DNA of 13,568 nucleotides from a virus. The stretch is taken from IMG/VR virus record IMGVR_UViG_3300037808_001901; one strand, 5' to 3'. How positions within the stretch are numbered: position 1 is the stretch's first letter; each line of letters begins with the position of its first letter. Under the pieces are notes generated by a model. It was not told where the DNA came from. It made no database searches and saw only the letters and a program-made list of their open reading frames with translations. The position numbers and the translations under genes were made by a program. Of the stretch, positions 11,971 through 13,553 are shown one piece after another.

Positions 11971-12059
11971 CGGTGAGGACAGGATTTGAACCTGCGGAGG
12001 GTATTTCACCTCTTCGGTTTTCGAAACCGACGCCTTAAACCAAGCTCAGCCACCTCACC
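11971..12059 (-). tRNA. tRNA-Ser(CGA), type II
   Basis: GGTGAGG-TG-GCT-GAGCTTGGTTTAA-GGC-G-TCGGT-TTCGAAA-ACCGA-long variable arm AGAGGTGAAATACCCTCC-GCAGG-TTCAAAT-CCTGT-CCTCACC-G. Canonical cloverleaf, discriminator G. Confidence 0.8.
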
Positions 12060-12065
12060 GTAAAG

Positions 12066-12145
12066 CGGAAAAGACGGGAATCGAACCCGCATGACCCTTT
12101 CGGGCCAACTTGTTTAGCAAACAAGCCCGGCGACACCACACTTCC
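12066..12145 (-). tRNA. tRNA-Ser(GCT)-like gene with truncated or aberrant D-arm (possible pseudogene)
   Basis: Anticodon arm CTTGT-TTGCTAA-ACAAG, long variable arm GGCCC-GAAA-GGGTC and T arm GCGGG-TTCGATT-CCCGT are intact. Only 13 nt lie between the acceptor and the anticodon stem (about 19 expected). The acceptor stem has one T-T mismatch. Confidence 0.4.
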
Positions 12146-12165
12146 GGCTCTCTTCCAGTGTCAAG

Positions 12166-12249
12166 CGGAGGACACGGGATTTGAACCCGCAAGCCATATT
12201 TCAGACCAACTGCTTTCCAAGCAGTCCGCTAACCGTTCGCTTATCCTCC
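12166..12249 (-). tRNA. tRNA-Ser(GGA)-like gene with non-pairing D-stem (possible pseudogene)
   Basis: Acceptor GGAGGAT/GTCCTCC, anticodon arm ACTGC-TTGGAAA-GCAGT and T arm GCGGG-TTCAAAT-CCCGT are present. The D region AAGCGAACGGTTAGCGG contains a direct repeat (AGCG..AGCG) rather than complementary halves. The variable arm is poorly paired. Confidence 0.4.
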
Positions 12250-12319
12250 ATTATGATGGCTGCAACTCAGGGACTTTTAGCCCGCAGCAGGGTAGTCTTA
12301 TTCCTGAGCAATCATCAAG

Positions 12320-12400
12320 TACCCGTGGCGAGAGTCGAACTCGCAAGCCTTGCGGCACCAGATTCTAAGTCTGGCGTGTTTACCGTTTCACCACACGGGC
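12320..12400 (-). tRNA. tRNA-Leu(TAG), type II
   Basis: GCCCGTG-TG-GTG-AAACGGTAAA-CAC-G-CCAGA-CTTAGAA-TCTGG-TGCCGCAAGGCTT-GCGAG-TTCGACT-CTCGC-CACGGGT-A. Canonical cloverleaf, G1-T72 wobble, discriminator A. Confidence 0.8.
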
Positions 12401-12404
12401 ATAG

Positions 12405-12478
12405 TAGCACTGGTCGGAGTCGAACCGACAAACACTTAGTTTTAAGCTAAGCCGCTTTGCCAATTAGCGTACAGTGCC
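12405..12478 (-). tRNA. type I (short variable arm) tRNA with anticodon TAA (Leu by anticodon)
   Basis: GGCACTG-TA-CGC-TAATTGGCAAA-GCG-G-CTTAG-CTTAAAA-CTAAG-TGTTT-GTCGG-TTCGACT-CCGAC-CAGTGCT-A. Canonical 74-nt cloverleaf, discriminator A. 5-nt variable loop, which is unusual for a Leu decoder. Confidence 0.6.
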
Positions 12479-12484
12479 AAAAAG

Positions 12485-12564
12485 TAGCCTTGGTGGGAGT
12501 CGAACCCACAAAATCACCAGATTCTAAATCTAGCCGCTTTGCCATTAGGTTTGCGTACAAGGCC
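12485..12564 (-). tRNA. type I tRNA with anticodon TAG (Leu by anticodon), long D-loop
   Basis: GGCCTTG-TA-CGC-AAACCTAATGGCAAA-GCG-G-CTAGA-TTTAGAA-TCTGG-TGATTTT-GTGGG-TTCGACT-CCCAC-CAAGGCT-A. 15-nt D-loop and 7-nt variable loop. Discriminator A. Confidence 0.5.
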
Positions 12565-12569
12565 ATAAG

Positions 12570-12643
12570 TAGCACAGGTCGGATTCGAACCGACAAACAC
12601 AAGTTTTTGAAACTTGCCGCTTTGCCAATTAGCGTACTGTGCC
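12570..12643 (-). tRNA. type I tRNA with anticodon CAA (Leu by anticodon)
   Basis: GGCACAG-TA-CGC-TAATTGGCAAA-GCG-G-CAAGT-TTCAAAA-ACTTG-TGTTT-GTCGG-TTCGAAT-CCGAC-CTGTGCT-A. Identical to the 12405-12478 gene except for the anticodon arm, one compensated acceptor pair and one T-loop base. Confidence 0.6.
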
Positions 12644-12721
12644 ATAAGGTGAATTCCTATCTTTTAGCACCAGTATCCCGAAGGATTCGTATGGGTAATA
12701 GGTTTGGCAATATTCACCAAG

Positions 12722-12808
12722 CAGAATGAGAGGGATTCGAACCCCCGGTGGGTATTTCACCACGCTAGTTTTCAAAACTAGTGCAATAAGCCGCTCTGCC
12801 ATCATTCT
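12722..12808 (-). tRNA. tRNA-Ser(TGA), type II
   Basis: AGAATGA-TG-GCA-GAGCGGCTTAT-TGC-A-CTAGT-TTTGAAA-ACTAG-long variable arm CGTGGTGAAATACCCACC-GGGGG-TTCGAAT-CCCTC-TCATTCT-G. Canonical cloverleaf, discriminator G. Confidence 0.8.
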
Positions 12809-12814
12809 GTAAAT

Positions 12815-13024
12815 TTATGTCTTACTCTTCTTCAACTTCGTTTTCTTCTGTTTCTTAAATCCTTTTGGATTATGTTGTGATATCCAATACTTTACATCTC
12901 CGCCATCAATCATCTTGCTACATACAGGTAGCCTTCGACTACAGACGGGACATCTATACTTTGTCCCTTCTGGTTTTTCGTTAATGCTAATGACGAATTC
13001 TTTGCATAAGTCTTCTTGTCTCAT
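12815..13024 (-). CDS. small Zn-ribbon-like basic protein (69 aa) embedded in the tRNA array
   Basis: Start set at the internal ATG 13024 (SD GGAG 6 nt upstream) because the longer ORF (to 13096) would overlap tRNA-Phe. MRQEDLCKEF..RCPVCSRRLPVC.. then a Lys-rich tail KGFKKQKKTKLKKSKT. The stop lies 6 nt before the tRNA-Ser(TGA) 5' end. Confidence 0.5.
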   Translation of the reverse strand: MRQEDLCKEFVISINEKPEGTKYRCPVCSRRLPVCSKMIDGGDVKYWISQHNPKGFKKQKKTKLKKSKT

Positions 13025-13038
13025 CACAATTCTCCAAG

Positions 13039-13111
13039 TGGTACGGGGCGGAATCGAACCGCCGACACCCTGATCTTCAGTCAGGTGCTCTACCAACTGA
13101 GCTACCGCACC
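13039..13111 (-). tRNA. tRNA-Phe(GAA)
   Basis: GGTGCGG-TA-GCTC-AGTTGGTA-GAGC-A-CCTGA-CTGAAGA-TCAGG-GTGTC-GGCGG-TTCGATT-CCGCC-CCGTACC-A. Textbook 73-nt tRNA-Phe architecture, discriminator A. Confidence 0.85.
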
Positions 13112-13116
13112 GTTAC

Positions 13117-13207
13117 TACTGTGAACGGGAATCGAACCCGCAATTCGCCATAGGCACCTATTTTACAGATAGGCTGAGTTAACCCCATTTACTCATTCAT
13201 TCACAAG
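13117..13207 (-). tRNA. tRNA-Tyr(GTA)-like gene with an 11-nt surplus in the D region and an imperfect acceptor (possible pseudogene)
   Basis: Anticodon arm CCTAT-CTGTAAA-ATAGG, long variable arm (GCC-TAT-GGC) and T arm GCGGG-TTCGATT-CCCGT are intact. The 3' acceptor TCACAGT pairs only with CTTGTGA, which starts immediately after the discriminator of the upstream tRNA-Leu(GAG). 30 nt (19 expected) lie between the acceptor and the anticodon stem. Confidence 0.35.
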
Positions 13208-13288
13208 TGTCCGTGACAGGAGTCGAACCTGCACGCCTTGCGGCACATCGACCTCAACGATGCGTGTCTGCCATTTCACCACACGGAC
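13208..13288 (-). tRNA. tRNA-Leu(GAG), type II
   Basis: GTCCGTG-TG-GTG-AAATGGCAGA-CAC-G-CATCG-TTGAGGT-CGATG-TGCCGCAAGGCGT-GCAGG-TTCGACT-CCTGT-CACGGAC-A. Canonical cloverleaf, discriminator A. Confidence 0.8.
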
Positions 13289-13297
13289 ATTATAAAG

Positions 13298-13379
13298 TGG
13301 GAGTTGGAGGATTTGAACCCCTTGCCGCAACCTTACATAATGGCAGGTGGTTTACAGCCACCCGTAAGGAACAACTCCC
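13298..13379 (-). tRNA. tRNA-Tyr(GTA)-like gene lacking a normal D-arm and with an oversized variable arm (possible pseudogene)
   Basis: Acceptor GGGAGTT/AACTCCC perfect. Anticodon arm GGTGG-CTGTAAA-CCACC. T arm AGGGG-TTCAAAT-CCTCC. Only 10 nt (GTTCCTTACG) lie between the acceptor and the anticodon stem. The 23-nt variable region has a 4-bp stem. Confidence 0.35.
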
Positions 13380-13385
13380 AAAAAG

Positions 13386-13466
13386 TGTAGCGGGCCGGAG
13401 TTGAACCGACACAGCCGTAGGCACCTGATTTACAGTCAGGGGAACTCGCCAATGTTCAGCCGCTAC
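13386..13466 (-). tRNA. tRNA-Tyr(GTA), type II
   Basis: GTAGCGG-CT-GAAC-ATTGGCGA-GTTC-C-CCTGA-CTGTAAA-TCAGG-TGCCTACGGCTGT-GTCGG-TTCAACT-CCGGC-CCGCTAC-A. Canonical cloverleaf, discriminator A. Confidence 0.8.
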
Positions 13467-13480
13467 ATTAAATTGTCAAG

Positions 13481-13553
13481 TGGACAGTCCCGGTTTTGAT
13501 CCGGGTTCTGCGGGTTTTCAATCCGCCGCAATGACCACACCTGCTCACTGTCC
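13481..13553 (-). tRNA. tRNA-Phe(GAA)-like gene with a non-canonical T-loop
   Basis: GGACAGT-GA-GCA-GGTGTGGTCAT-TGC-G-GCGGA-TTGAAAA-CCCGC-AGAA-CCCGG-ATCAAAA-CCGGG-ACTGTCC-A. 73 nt with perfect acceptor, D and T stems. There is an A-C mismatch at the base of the anticodon stem. The T-loop ATCAAAA lacks the TTC signature. Confidence 0.45.

Follow-up and report, generated by a model that had tools for sequence, protein, structure and literature searches.

A phage tRNA array restricted to leucine, serine, tyrosine and phenylalanine, preceded by a putative ribosome-mediated attenuator

The enterobacterial attenuators (trp, pheA, his, leu, thr and ilvGMEDA) consist of a short open reading frame (ORF) with regulatory codons followed by an intrinsic terminator, and the supply of charged tRNA is sensed through the alternative pairings 1 : 2, 2 : 3 and 3 : 4; the thr (Thr and Ile) and ilv (Ile, Leu and Val) leaders are multivalent. 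Leader-peptide attenuators respond to tRNA amount, that of pheA being derepressed 6-7 fold on loss of one tRNA-Phe gene (PMC3082878). T-box riboswitches are likewise leader RNAs that sense the charging of a specific tRNA and control terminator read-through, but their binding of uncharged tRNA is direct and independent of translation, and they act on synthetase and amino-acid genes. A literature search found no published example of a leader-peptide attenuator controlling a tRNA gene, and none was found for E. coli pheV. The tRNA arrays of phages such as T4, T5 and the mycobacteriophages are clusters in large lytic phages that encode no CCA, and codon compensation and evasion of tRNA-targeting defence have been proposed as their roles (PMC10264068; PMC11555353; PMC11464382). 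Known arrays are mixed and as a rule have around one gene for each amino acid; small ORFs and a homing-endonuclease-like gene lie among the tRNA genes, and the copies diverge from the cellular counterpart mainly in the anticodon stem-loop. In T5/T6, tRNA-Tyr, a contested class II tRNA whose variable arm is attacked, counters Septu and retron-Eco7 PtuAB, and SegB drives amplification of the tRNA region (PMC13096335).

The array described here was found in a 13,568-nucleotide stretch of viral DNA (IMG/VR record IMGVR_UViG_3300037808_001901; hereafter the window), and its carrier is a T4-like large marine myovirus. The minus strand at 11970-13553 holds 11 canonical tRNA genes identified with ARAGORN and three non-canonical tRNA-like genes (table 1), none of the array tRNA genes encoding CCA. 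Ten of the 11 ARAGORN genes scored above the gathering score of Rfam RF00005, and the best Rfam score of tRNA-Ser(GCT) was tRNA-Sec-like (37.8 bits). The three weaker genes fill gaps in the array, were missed by ARAGORN at default settings, and show compensatory changes or are kept in related lineages: three anticodon-stem pairs of Tyr-like gene A are altered on both sides in lineage R2, the loop-closing pair of Tyr-like gene B is U-A, A-U and G-C across the three lineages compared, and the short Leu(TAG)-like gene is the sole gene with a TAG anticodon in the array of lineage R1. Among the canonical genes, the anticodon stem of bacterial-type tRNA-Tyr differs by compensatory pairs across the three lineages, and tRNA-Phe no. 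1 has compensatory changes in its anticodon and T stems in R1. The 69-amino-acid ORF within the array is also called as a gene in related contigs.

Table 1. Coordinates of the features in the window, in order from the start of the array.
Feature	Position	Strand	Remarks
3' edge of putative attenuator terminator	13560-13568	-	13568, final stem C; 13560-13567, U8 tract
tRNA-Phe(GAA) no. 1	13480-13553	-	ARAGORN, Rfam 41.6 bits; atypical T-loop
tRNA-Tyr(GTA), bacterial type	13385-13466	-	ARAGORN, Rfam; long variable arm, G1-C72, A73
Tyr-like tRNA-like gene A	13297-13379	-	GTA anticodon loop CUGUAAA; short D arm, large variable region
tRNA-Leu(GAG)	13207-13288	-	ARAGORN, Rfam; long variable arm
Tyr-like tRNA-like gene B	13117-13205	-	GTA anticodon loop, U1-A72 acceptor, G73, Tyr-type short variable hairpin
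tRNA-Phe(GAA) no. 2	13038-13111	-	ARAGORN, Rfam 72.3 bits; canonical, G37
69-amino-acid ORF inside array	12815-13024	-	conserved C7, CPxC, H51; basic tail QHNPKGFKKQKKTKLKKSK
tRNA-Ser(TGA)	12721-12808	-	ARAGORN, Rfam
tRNA-Leu(CAA), 75 nt	12569-12643	-	ARAGORN, Rfam; short variable region, A73
Short tRNA-Leu(TAG)-like gene	12484-12563	-	not among the 11 ARAGORN genes
tRNA-Leu(TAA), 75 nt	12404-12478	-	ARAGORN, Rfam; short variable region
tRNA-Leu(TAG), long variable arm	12319-12400	-	ARAGORN, Rfam; missing in lineage R1
tRNA-Ser(GGA)	12165-12249	-	ARAGORN, Rfam 35 bits
tRNA-Ser(GCT)	12065-12156	-	ARAGORN; Rfam tRNA-Sec-like
tRNA-Ser(CGA), final array gene	11970-12059	-	ARAGORN, Rfam
Solo tRNA-Leu(TAA)	10112-10219	-	21-nt hairpin insertion 5' of anticodon
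Solo tRNA-Leu(TAG)	7759-7863	-	22-nt hairpin insertion in anticodon loop

All anticodons of the array and of both solo genes belong to Leu, Ser, Tyr or Phe, and the list given in the initial annotation proved exact by ARAGORN, Rfam, inspection of the gaps and the solo genes. Combined, the array tRNAs read 16 of 16 codons for these amino acids with 10 anticodons. The solo tRNA-Leu(TAA) has its own promoter-like sequence (TTTACA-16-TACAAT), and the counterpart of the solo tRNA-Leu(TAG) in lineage R2 is without the 22-nt insertion. The array is bounded at both ends. Beyond tRNA-Ser(CGA) the next gene is an 81-amino-acid ORF starting at 11934; at the other end, where the array had been thought to continue past 13568, exact-match contigs refuted this: a terminator, a leader ORF and a promoter-like site occupy the 200 nt past the window end, and protein genes lie beyond. 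These boundaries, and the retention of one anticodon repertoire by three diverged lineages despite compensatory stem substitutions and some replacements of gene bodies, show that the restriction to four amino acids is real and that the array is not an arbitrary sub-window of a mixed one. Its earlier description as the complete long-variable-arm (class II) set plus Phe held for the restriction and needs qualifying as to the arm: the variable regions of tRNA-Leu(CAA), tRNA-Leu(TAA) and the short Leu(TAG)-like gene are 5-7 nt, so these are not long-variable-arm tRNAs. Complete isoacceptor sets for only four amino acids, and an apparent dedicated upstream sensor, set the array apart from known phage arrays, with which it shares clustering, absence of CCA, interspersed small ORFs and a homing-endonuclease-like gene, and divergence mainly in the anticodon stem-loop.

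A GC-rich hairpin of 13 bp and a U8 tract make up the terminator, with 6 nt between the end of the tract and tRNA-Phe no. 1. Apart from its edge in the window, the hairpin falls just past the window end, together with the leader ORF and a conserved promoter-like site, at virtual coordinates 13568-13758 (6267-6457 of contig L190). Directly upstream of the array, the leader ORF has 19 codons and encodes MNT-FLFSLSLSYLSS-EEDT. Its codons 4-15 all specify Phe, Leu, Ser or Tyr (TTT TTG TTT AGT CTG TCA CTC AGT TAT TTA TCC TCA), and these 12 codons call on nine of the 10 anticodon classes of the array (p = 0.023 given the phage's own codon usage). When 82 kb was shuffled and translated in six frames, 8 of 100 shuffles contained a run of at least 12 such codons at some place, and the significance of the run therefore depends on its position: a 12-codon cognate run in an ORF with an ATG start, in the 300 nt upstream, was reached in 0 of 20000 shuffles, and it is confined to one reading frame. 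The leader ORF has a weak Shine-Dalgarno sequence (GGA, 8 nt upstream), and an alternative in-frame GTG start is possible further upstream of the ATG.

The leader is strongly structured (z = -6.1; 0 of 200 shuffles folded equally well). Predicted energies were -21 to -30 kcal/mol for helix 1 : 2 and -28 to -30 kcal/mol for the terminator, against about -10 kcal/mol for the alternative 2 : 3 hairpin, a weak antiterminator. Minimum-energy folds of the full leader retained the terminator even with segment 1 masked, so that a switch would have to depend on kinetics. The leader is also the best-conserved segment of the locus in the three lineages: over the 86 nt that run from the ribosome-binding region to segment 2, identity between lineages is 99%, with one synonymous change, compared with 90% for the gene upstream of the leader and 73-100% for the neighbouring tRNAs (83-100% without tRNA-Phe no. 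2 of R1, which is degenerate, with a 9-nt loop and a broken stem). As the leader is almost invariant and the three lineages are closely related, little covariation is available for helices 1 : 2 and 2 : 3; the foot pair of the terminator shows a compensatory change from G-C to A-U between lineages, and the 2 : 3 hairpin is retained in R1 via different base pairs.

From these sequence features and modelled folds we propose that the array would be a self-contained, demand-regulated set of replacement tRNAs under a ribosome-mediated attenuator of the trp/pheA/thr type, a reading to which we give about an even chance of being correct. With ample charged Phe, Leu, Ser and Tyr tRNAs, the ribosome would reach the stop codon, or helix 1 : 2 would form, and the terminator would then fold and halt transcription ahead of the array. 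Scarcity of any of the four would stall the ribosome on the regulatory codons overlapping segment 1; segment 2, once freed, would base-pair with the terminator's 5' strand, and RNA polymerase would read through into the array, whose tRNAs would lift the stall and close the feedback loop. The arrangement would resemble the thr and ilv leaders in answering to several amino acids. It would differ from the enterobacterial attenuators in that phage tRNAs, not biosynthetic enzymes or synthetases, are regulated, in that the regulatory codons are nine different codons/anticodons of four amino acids, not one repeated, and in the weakness of the predicted antiterminator. A T-box was not found here by an Rfam scan. 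Against the attenuator, a promoter-like sequence (TTCAAA-17-TATAAT, 13289-13317) immediately upstream of tRNA-Leu(GAG) could drive the downstream genes independently.

The same layout was found, as an independent second case, with a quite different tRNA set on a second phage contig, L115, which carries a related ribonucleotide reductase (RNR): a TTGACA promoter and an ORF (MTTCTYNKIENKGCAEGTILGGAV) precede a terminator, behind which lies an array of 22 tRNAs, none of them for Leu, Ser or Phe. In the leader, eight codons in a row each have a cognate tRNA in that array, which 216 of 20000 shuffles reached, and this support comes from a single contig at p ~0.01. In constrained folds of L115 the antiterminator is clear: pairings 1 : 2 and 3 : 4 formed with no ribosome, stalling of a ribosome at codons 6-14 gave 2 : 3, and a ribosome at the stop codon left no antiterminator. 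No comparable leader was found at mixed arrays in other phages.

It is conceivable, if doubtful, that a full complement is split over the genome and that this array is one of its sub-clusters, with other isoacceptors elsewhere in a phage that is not restricted to four amino acids; further tRNA genes may indeed exist, since the genome measures at least 196 kb, and probably about 250 kb, and the contiguous sequence scanned for tRNAs covers about 72 kb. In the mixed arrays of other phages the class II and Phe genes are grouped at one end, and the L115 array is built almost only of the other amino acids. On the other hand, neither ARAGORN nor Rfam at the gathering score found a further tRNA in the approximately 72 kb around the array, and relatives at 45-49% SbcD identity had no tRNA within 10 kb. 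A split complement would be compatible with the attenuator, because it would mean several separately regulated sets. Constitutive supply, through read-through or internal promoters, to a host poor in these four kinds of tRNA relative to phage demand, the leader ORF being a coincidence in a U-rich structured leader, is in our judgement unlikely. Phage tRNAs are as a rule explained by codon compensation; the internal promoter-like site and the weak antiterminator suit it, and U-rich sequence favours Phe, Leu, Ser and Tyr codons, long runs of which arise by chance in 82 kb. However, the run is frame-specific, extends from ATG to stop between a promoter-like site and a strong terminator, and lies in the best-conserved segment of the locus, and the design recurs in L115 with another set of codons. 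Nor does codon usage single out the four amino acids, which are not over-used by the phage and make up 20.8% of its codons: the rarest Ser codon, TCG, has its own tRNA, whereas none was found for the heavily used AGA, GAA and AAA in the 72 kb read.

The restriction might instead be an unselected accident of history, in which a Phe-Leu-Leu-Ser-Leu module was captured from another phage array and duplicated locally. Pairs that share 70-76% identity with the tandem short tRNA-Leu genes occur in IMG/VR arrays and in Acinetobacter phage Acibel004, where they adjoin Phe and Ser, and within the array tRNA-Leu(CAA) and tRNA-Leu(TAA) are 87% identical and tRNA-Leu(GAG) and tRNA-Leu(TAG) 74%. We judge such an origin of the whole set improbable: the Ser genes are only 56-67% alike, tRNA-Tyr and tRNA-Phe no. 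1 have no such relatives, all 16 codons are covered, and the repertoire was kept in three lineages despite swapped bodies, the R1 tRNA-Ser(TGA) being derived from a Ser-CGA-like paralogue with the anticodon TGA preserved. Decay of the array into mostly pseudogenes, as raised in the initial annotation, has almost nothing to recommend it beyond the three genes missed by default ARAGORN, the low scores of tRNA-Phe no. 1 and tRNA-Ser(GGA), the degenerate R1 copy of tRNA-Phe no. 2 and the interrupted solo Leu genes; it is not supported, because stems, including those of low-scoring and non-canonical members, change by compensatory double substitutions while anticodon loops stay invariant in three lineages. 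Cyclodipeptide synthases and L/F-transferase use Phe-, Leu- and Tyr-tRNAs, and the array could in principle feed one of these or a Fem-type transferase. This is very improbable, as full isoacceptor sets suit decoding and not an anticodon-blind enzyme, and the aminoacyl-tRNA-dependent side process once suggested for the array found no candidate: no such domain appeared in Pfam and PHROGs scans of the window proteins, neighbouring genes included, or in Pfam tables for 72 kb.

As to why these four amino acids are served and what depletes the host pool, the likeliest candidate cause, and a plausible one, is tRNA-directed immunity that destroys or inactivates tRNAs of the host, because known effectors recognise the long variable arm or the anticodon arm. 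The earlier suggestion that the array stands in for host tRNAs attacked by a defence is plausible and indirectly supported: a shortage of just these tRNAs is what the proposed leader attenuator would sense, divergence is concentrated in anticodon stems (33 of 66 inter-lineage differences lie within 10 anticodon-stem nucleotides), and tRNA-Phe no. 2 differs from the chromosomal tRNA-Phe of Saprospiraceae by 6 nt, five of them in the anticodon stem-loop. Phe may have been included through shared module ancestry, since it adjoins the Leu/Ser block in the arrays of other phages. The T5/T6 tRNA-Tyr case offers a parallel in its class II target, its extra Tyr-type copies and its endonuclease gene inside the array, which is present here in lineage R1 (PDDEXK_5); it differs in that the endonuclease here is of the PD-(D/E)XK and not the GIY-YIG family, the copies are diverged paralogues and not recent tandem amplifications, and a Septu or retron target is not known for the host of this phage (PMC13096335). 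If the proposed attenuator is real, this virus would sense when its host runs short of these tRNAs and then turn on its own copies.

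Exact copies of proteins encoded in the window were located on several marine metagenome contigs, including contigs from Saanich Inlet and Line P samples and contigs of 60 kb (ENA) and 196 kb (JGI), and about 72 kb of contiguous sequence was read around the tRNA array. Pfam domains for T4_baseplate, T4 gp15, sheath and gp19 were detected on the same contig, and the 72 kb also encode a class II ribonucleotide reductase (RNR), SbcCD, CTP synthase and a family A DNA polymerase among tightly packed genes that are mainly ORFans. By gene content the source is a large T4-like myovirus. 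INPHARED held no near-identical phage record, and a distant search gave single-tRNA matches only.

Eleven minus-strand tRNA genes were detected using ARAGORN, in the transcription order Phe-GAA, Tyr-GTA, Leu-GAG, Phe-GAA, Ser-TGA, Leu-CAA, Leu-TAA, Leu-TAG, Ser-GGA, Ser-GCT and Ser-CGA. Ten scored above the gathering score of Rfam RF00005, and the best Rfam match of the eleventh, Ser-GCT, was long-arm and tRNA-Sec-like. Three weaker elements in the gaps between genes and two solo tRNA-Leu genes are listed in the table. The anticodon list of the initial annotation was exact: Leu (TAA, CAA, TAG, GAG), Ser (TGA, CGA, GGA, GCT), Tyr (GTA) and Phe (GAA) only, and array and solo anticodons jointly decode all 16 codons of these amino acids. 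The locus is a phage tRNA array, since every defining feature was observed (clustered genes, one strand, a phage genome). At its downstream edge an 81-aa ORF follows Ser-CGA; at its upstream edge Phe no. 1, the first gene, is preceded by about 225 nt of non-coding sequence and then by a 158-aa gene. The array had been thought perhaps to run past position 13568, where instead a leader and the 158-aa gene were found, so it is bounded. ARAGORN and Rfam gave no further tRNA in the 72 kb read; a second array may lie elsewhere in the remaining 120 kb or more of the genome.

Coordinates of the array, its leader and other genes referred to in the text (window positions unless a contig is named)
Feature	Contig	Position	Strand	Remarks
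tRNA array, 11 genes	window	11970-13553	minus	
tRNA-Phe no. 1	window	13480-13553	minus	first gene
tRNA-Phe no. 2	window	13038-13111	minus	
Tyr-like gene A	window	13297-13379	minus	inter-gene gap; CUGUAAA loop, GTA anticodon
Tyr-like gene B	window	13117-13205	minus	inter-gene gap; CUGUAAA loop, GTA anticodon
Leu-CAA/Leu-TAA tandem	window	12404-12643	minus	75 nt, 3-bp D stem, A73
Short Leu-TAG element	window	12484-12563	minus	inter-gene gap
First solo tRNA-Leu	window	7759-7863	minus	
Second solo tRNA-Leu	window	10112-10219	minus	
Internal promoter-like site	window	13289-13317	minus	TTCAAA-17-TATAAT
U8 tract and last C of terminator hairpin	window	13560-13568		remainder of hairpin outside window
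Leader ORF	L190	6327-6386		ATG + 18 codons + TAA
Second leader region	L115 (JACCDP010188273.1)	3185-3460		promoter-like site, ORF, terminator, then tRNA array
69-aa ORF in array	window	12815-13024	minus	
896-aa protein	window	1799-4489	minus	PF11978 (1.8e-22), PF17795 (3.2e-12)
Adenosyltransferase, PduO type	window	10743-11261	minus	PF01923, 3e-46
Stand-alone S4 domain, 64 aa	window	10567-10761	minus	
59-aa low-complexity ORF	window	1614-1793	minus	
FkbM-family methyltransferase	window	707-1534	minus	
RNase T-like 3'-5' exonuclease	window	5456-6034	minus	
PD-(D/E)XK endonuclease gene, lineage R1	L234	843-1211		PF11645; between Phe no. 1 and Tyr
87-aa Cys-rich ORF, lineage R2	L242	7370-7633		after Phe no. 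2

In bacterial tRNAs A73 marks Leu, Tyr and Phe, G73 marks Ser, and G1-C72 with a long arm marks Tyr. Bacterial-type identity elements (discriminator bases and Tyr G1-C72) could be read off the array sequences, with the exception of gene B, which has U1-A72 and G73; CCA is encoded by none of the genes. A long variable arm (more than 10 nt, forming a stem-loop) is present in the four Ser genes, Tyr, Leu-GAG, the long Leu-TAG and both solo Leu genes, whereas Leu-CAA and Leu-TAA have a 5-nt variable region and the short Leu-TAG element one of about 7 nt. The description of the set as class II plus Phe consequently holds for the amino acids and fails for the structures, since three Leu genes lack the long arm. 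Short tRNA-Leu pairs are common among the arrays of other phages: many IMG/VR arrays, and also that of the cultured Acinetobacter phage Acibel004, contain pairs 70-76% identical to the tandem, which stand at the end of mixed arrays, adjoining Phe and Ser.

Two further lineages of related phages were available for comparison, R1 (contigs L181, L184 and L234-L241) and R2 (contigs L242 and L214). The R1 array is complete, bounded at both edges and restricted to the same four amino acids; in R2 the first six members were seen before the contig ended. In R1 the body of Ser-TGA has been swapped for a Ser-CGA-like copy with the TGA anticodon retained, Ser-GCT and Ser-GGA have diverged strongly, and the long Leu-TAG has been deleted while the short Leu-TAG element is kept. 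Among the first six members, both Tyr-like genes included, anticodon loops are near-invariant and anticodon stems carry compensatory pairs: the loop-closing pair of gene B is U-A, A-U or G-C across the three lineages, and gene A has three pairs altered on both sides. The ten anticodon-stem nucleotides, 12% of the length, hold 33 of the 66 inter-lineage differences (binomial p 1e-13), and the excess stayed significant when paired changes were counted once. Compensatory stem changes beside near-invariant loops indicate functional RNAs; a degenerating array, which the initial annotation had entertained, is not what these copies resemble. The four-amino-acid restriction itself stood, the set being complete, bounded and conserved between lineages, and we regard the array as very probably a selected, functional four-amino-acid set. 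To find relatives, IMG/VR and JGI metagenomes were searched with three proteins, the adenosyltransferase, RNR and SbcD. At 26-66% identity, no comparable array was found near these three genes, and no tRNA lay within 10 kb of the markers in relatives (SbcD 45-49%, RNR 45-66%), except on L115, described below, and at three loci with one to four scattered tRNAs each; the array is thus a feature of this lineage.

Judged from their sequences, the arrays accept mobile ORFs: R1 carries a PD-(D/E)XK endonuclease gene and R2 an extra Cys-rich ORF, which recall SegB of the T-even tRNA region. A 69-aa ORF within the array is present in the three lineages at 93% and 63% identity, with invariant C7, CPxC, H51 and a lysine-rich tail; it gave no Pfam or PHROGs match, and its product may be a zinc-finger RNA-binding protein. 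A promoter-like site inside the array (10 of 12 consensus matches) overlaps the T-loop of gene A and stops directly before Leu-GAG; its -10 element is TTTAAT in R1 and R2. From such a site, the genes further down the array could be transcribed independently of the attenuator. A scan of the array region with sigma-70 and terminator consensus sequences gave matches at or below shuffled expectation.

The leader upstream of Phe no. 1 was read in three independent assemblies (L004, L190 and L191). It begins with a conserved promoter-like site, TTGCAT-17-TACTAT, and a 5' hairpin, followed by a short ORF: ATG AAC ACG TTT TTG TTT AGT CTG TCA CTC AGT TAT TTA TCC TCA GAG GAG GAC ACG TAA. The predicted peptide is MNT-FLFSLSLSYLSS-EEDT. 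The initiation context, GGAAAAAATC-ATG, is within the range of the genes of this phage, since 25 of 91 lack an SD and a further 8 show GGA only. A spacer of 29 nt separates the ORF from a terminator consisting of a perfect 13-bp hairpin, GCCCGAUGCUGUC-UCAG-GACGGCAUCGGGC, and U8 (-28 to -30 kcal/mol), which ends 6 nt upstream of Phe no. 1 and whose basal pair covaries from G-C to A-U in R1.

Twelve consecutive codons of the leader ORF specify only F, L, S and Y, the four amino acids of the array. They comprise nine distinct codons and sample nine of the ten anticodon classes of the array, Ser-CGA being the one missing; the evenness of this sampling has p = 0.023 against the codon usage of the phage itself. 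The other two frames of the stretch are not FLSY-rich. When the 300-nt upstream region was shuffled, no ATG-started ORF had an FLSY run of such length in 20000 shuffles. Runs of at least 12 arose somewhere in the six-frame translations of 82 kb in 8% of shuffles, so the argument rests on position, frame and context. Between lineages a stretch of 86 nt, which begins at the initiation region and extends to segment 2 (described below), differs by one synonymous change (TTT to TTC). Identity is 90% for the upstream protein gene and 73-100% for the adjacent tRNAs, or 83-100% if Phe no. 2 of R1, a degenerate copy, is omitted.

The leader was far more structured than shuffled sequence (z = -6.1). Codons 2-8 of the ORF (segment 1) were predicted to pair with the sequence directly after the stop codon (segment 2) at -21 to -30 kcal/mol. 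Stalling of a ribosome at codons 4-11 was imitated by masking segment 1, and the transcript lacking the 3' strand of the terminator was folded; segment 2 was then predicted to pair with the 5' strand of the terminator (segment 3) through AGAC/GUCU and GGGU/RCCC at about -10 kcal/mol. R1 retains this alternative 2:3 hairpin at equal stability with different base pairs. Relative to the terminator the antiterminator is weak, and the terminator persists when the full leader is folded at equilibrium, so that it is the layout that suggests a switch. Of the features expected of an attenuator, a short ORF, a run of cognate codons and an intrinsic terminator before the first tRNA are present, the folds hint at a 2:3 pairing in competition with 3:4, and the modelled leader has the architecture of a trp-type attenuator. 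As read from the sequence, the locus is probably a leader-peptide attenuator; that the attenuator controls the array is a reading to which we give an even chance or slightly better.

Few other arrays with upstream sequence were examined, and among them a second case was found on L115, a phage contig of 17 kb that encodes an RNR with 61% identity. Leu, Ser and Phe are missing from its set of 22 tRNAs, which covers Gly, Glu, Tyr, Lys, Thr, Asn, Ala, Ile, Met and Arg. A TTGACA promoter-like site is followed by a 24-codon ORF, MTTCTYNKIENKGCAEGTILGGAV, and by a 10-bp terminator with a U-rich tail; the first tRNA starts 34 nt after the hairpin, which is 26 nt after the tail. For eight consecutive codons of this ORF, TAT AAT AAG ATA GAA AAT AAA GGA, the array has a cognate tRNA in every case, including the unusual Ile-TAT and Lys-CTT, a run length reached in 216 of 20000 shuffles. 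In constrained folds without a ribosome, helix 1:2 (GCACCU/GGGUGC) and the terminator were predicted; with a ribosome at codons 6-14, segment 2 (CUCGGGGG) paired with the terminator 5' strand (CCCCUGG); once the ribosome was placed at the stop codon, there was no antiterminator. For L115, mutually exclusive pairings and the three trp-type states were thus predicted cleanly. In both cases the codon run matches its array, the F, L, S and Y set here and the ten-amino-acid set in L115, and chance is hard to invoke since two amino-acid sets, non-overlapping apart from Tyr, each have a mini-ORF of their own codons. IMG/VR searches with the L115 leader and with Phe no. 1 gave no matches. The mixed arrays of the unrelated phages L087, L090, L093 and L215 have no such leader, so the feature is not universal.

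Transcription would start at the conserved promoter-like site. With enough charged Phe, Leu, Ser and Tyr tRNA, the ribosome would clear the regulatory run and the terminator would stop the polymerase 6 nt before the array. Were any of the four scarce, the ribosome would stall over segment 1, segment 2 would capture the terminator 5' strand and the polymerase would enter the array; the newly made tRNAs would then restore decoding and switch the array off again. Leader-peptide attenuators respond to the amount of tRNA as well as to amino-acid supply, and the pheA attenuator was derepressed 6-7 fold in a mutant missing one tRNA-Phe gene (PMC3082878). We put forward, at somewhat under an even chance, that in some phages the array is under a leader-peptide attenuator whose ORF acts as a 'codon menu'. 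The phage would thereby sense, one codon at a time, which of them the infected cell is unable to decode, as might follow the action of an immune system aimed at tRNAs, and only in that event would it transcribe its own replacement tRNAs. Phage tRNA arrays and leader-peptide attenuation are each well known. In the literature, no report was found of a tRNA array with a leader-peptide attenuator or of any tRNA gene under one; the tRNA-Phe genes of E. coli were considered as a precedent, and pheV, checked directly, has a promoter only. A T-box riboswitch was excluded here by the lack of an Rfam match.

For fifty years it has been debated whether phages carry tRNAs for codon compensation or to replace those that are destroyed in the course of infection. 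Codon compensation alone fits this array poorly, because the share of Leu, Ser, Tyr and Phe among phage codons is 20.8%, with no excess, TCG is the rarest Ser codon (RSCU 0.35) yet has its own tRNA, and no tRNA in the 72 kb read serves the codons of other amino acids that the phage uses heavily. It is plausible that the array replaces tRNAs lost to host immunity, since effectors acting on such tRNA structures are known: MenT3 selects tRNA-Ser, and more weakly tRNA-Leu, through the long variable loop (PMC11541572), and cleavage has been reported of variable or anticodon loops by VapC52, a VapC, and of the anticodon arm by OLD and a bacterial Schlafen. Schlafen was rejected as a nuclease specific to class II tRNAs, the characterized enzyme cleaving Lys, Ala, Met, Val, Phe and Ile tRNAs. 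The substrates of MiaA (i6A37) were likewise rejected as the unifying feature, as Leu-CUN and Ser-AGY are present and Cys and Trp absent. Counter-defence tRNAs such as T5 tRNA-Tyr against PtuAB and T5 tRNA-Lys against PARIS are a candidate parallel. In that class the host encodes an immune effector that cleaves or inactivates the same isoacceptors, and the phage tRNA differs from that of the host where the effector recognizes or cuts it, yet keeps its aminoacylation identity; the features of the array listed next may be relevant to such a difference.

Three features fit an arms race over tRNA shape, namely loss of the long arm in three Leu genes, fast compensated change in anticodon stems and the anticodon stem-loop differences of Phe. 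The last were found on comparison with 185,579 species genomes, in which the 3' half of Phe no. 2 was matched exactly only in eight Saprospiraceae MAGs (L244-L251). Six differences separate the full gene from Saprospiraceae tRNA-Phe; the anticodon stem-loop accounts for five, in the form of two swapped base pairs and A37G, and A37G arose independently in R1 Phe no. 1. Phe may belong to the set simply since it adjoins the Leu/Ser block in the arrays of other phages. Bacteroidota favour A-rich, SD-poor initiation contexts. A candidate host lineage suggested by the tRNA-Phe match is Saprospiraceae (Bacteroidota), which the A-rich, SD-poor context of the leader ORF would also fit. That host immunity targeting tRNAs was the ultimate driver of a selected four-amino-acid array is plausible but, in our estimate, less likely than not.

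In each of the solo tRNA-Leu genes, an insertion of 21-22 nt with a conserved hairpin, GGGTTA..CAACCC, stands directly 5' of the anticodon. In R2 (L214) the counterpart of the first solo gene lacks exactly the insertion and has the loop TTTAGGA, the insertion flanks being TA...TA; in R1 (L234) the hairpin of the second is still paired through a U-A to C-G change, and its anticodon and T stems also have compensatory pairs. No other copy of the motif is present in the window (0.05 expected), and a search of IMG/VR gave five chance matches, none in tRNAs. A group I core takes about 200 nt or more, and archaeal introns have a bulge-helix-bulge (BHB) at exon-intron junctions. With 21-22 nt, a simple 5-6 bp hairpin, no Rfam intron match and no BHB motif, both intron types were rejected. 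The insertion could be a mini-intron, a mobile mini-insertion or a mask of the anticodon loop.

The C-terminal domain of TyrRS binds the variable arm of tRNA-Tyr. The stand-alone S4 domain exceeds the Pfam thresholds for S4 and for this TyrRS domain; it was rejected as an essential variable-arm partner, being dispensable for the array since R1 keeps the array with a copy internally deleted to 38 aa. The FkbM-family methyltransferase was rejected as TRM5/TYW2 (17.9 against 28 bits, sub-threshold), and, to judge by domain family, either it or the RNase T-like exonuclease might act on tRNA. The phage probably makes its own adenosylcobalamin cofactor, since it encodes an ATP:cob(I)alamin adenosyltransferase and, about 10 kb away, a B12-dependent class II RNR; homologues of the adenosyltransferase are common in giant-virus MAGs and large IMG/VR contigs. 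The 896-aa protein matches the shoulder and repeat domains of major vault protein, as which it is annotated by JGI, and is unusual for a phage. The 59-aa ORF is Met/Gly-rich with nine terminal Asp and was called in all related contigs.

If true, the proposed circuit would be the first ribosome-mediated attenuation of tRNA genes and a built-in sensor and response against tRNA-directed immunity, extending leader-peptide attenuation to tRNA genes and to viruses. A sensor that mirrors its array would reveal the trigger of that array as a shortage of those charged tRNAs and would make the question of tRNA purpose testable by a simple reporter. It would also give a searchable signature in phage genomes (promoter, cognate-codon mini-ORF, terminator, first tRNA) and would indicate that host Leu, Ser, Tyr and Phe tRNAs are attacked or limiting in a marine bacterial lineage, possibly Saprospiraceae.
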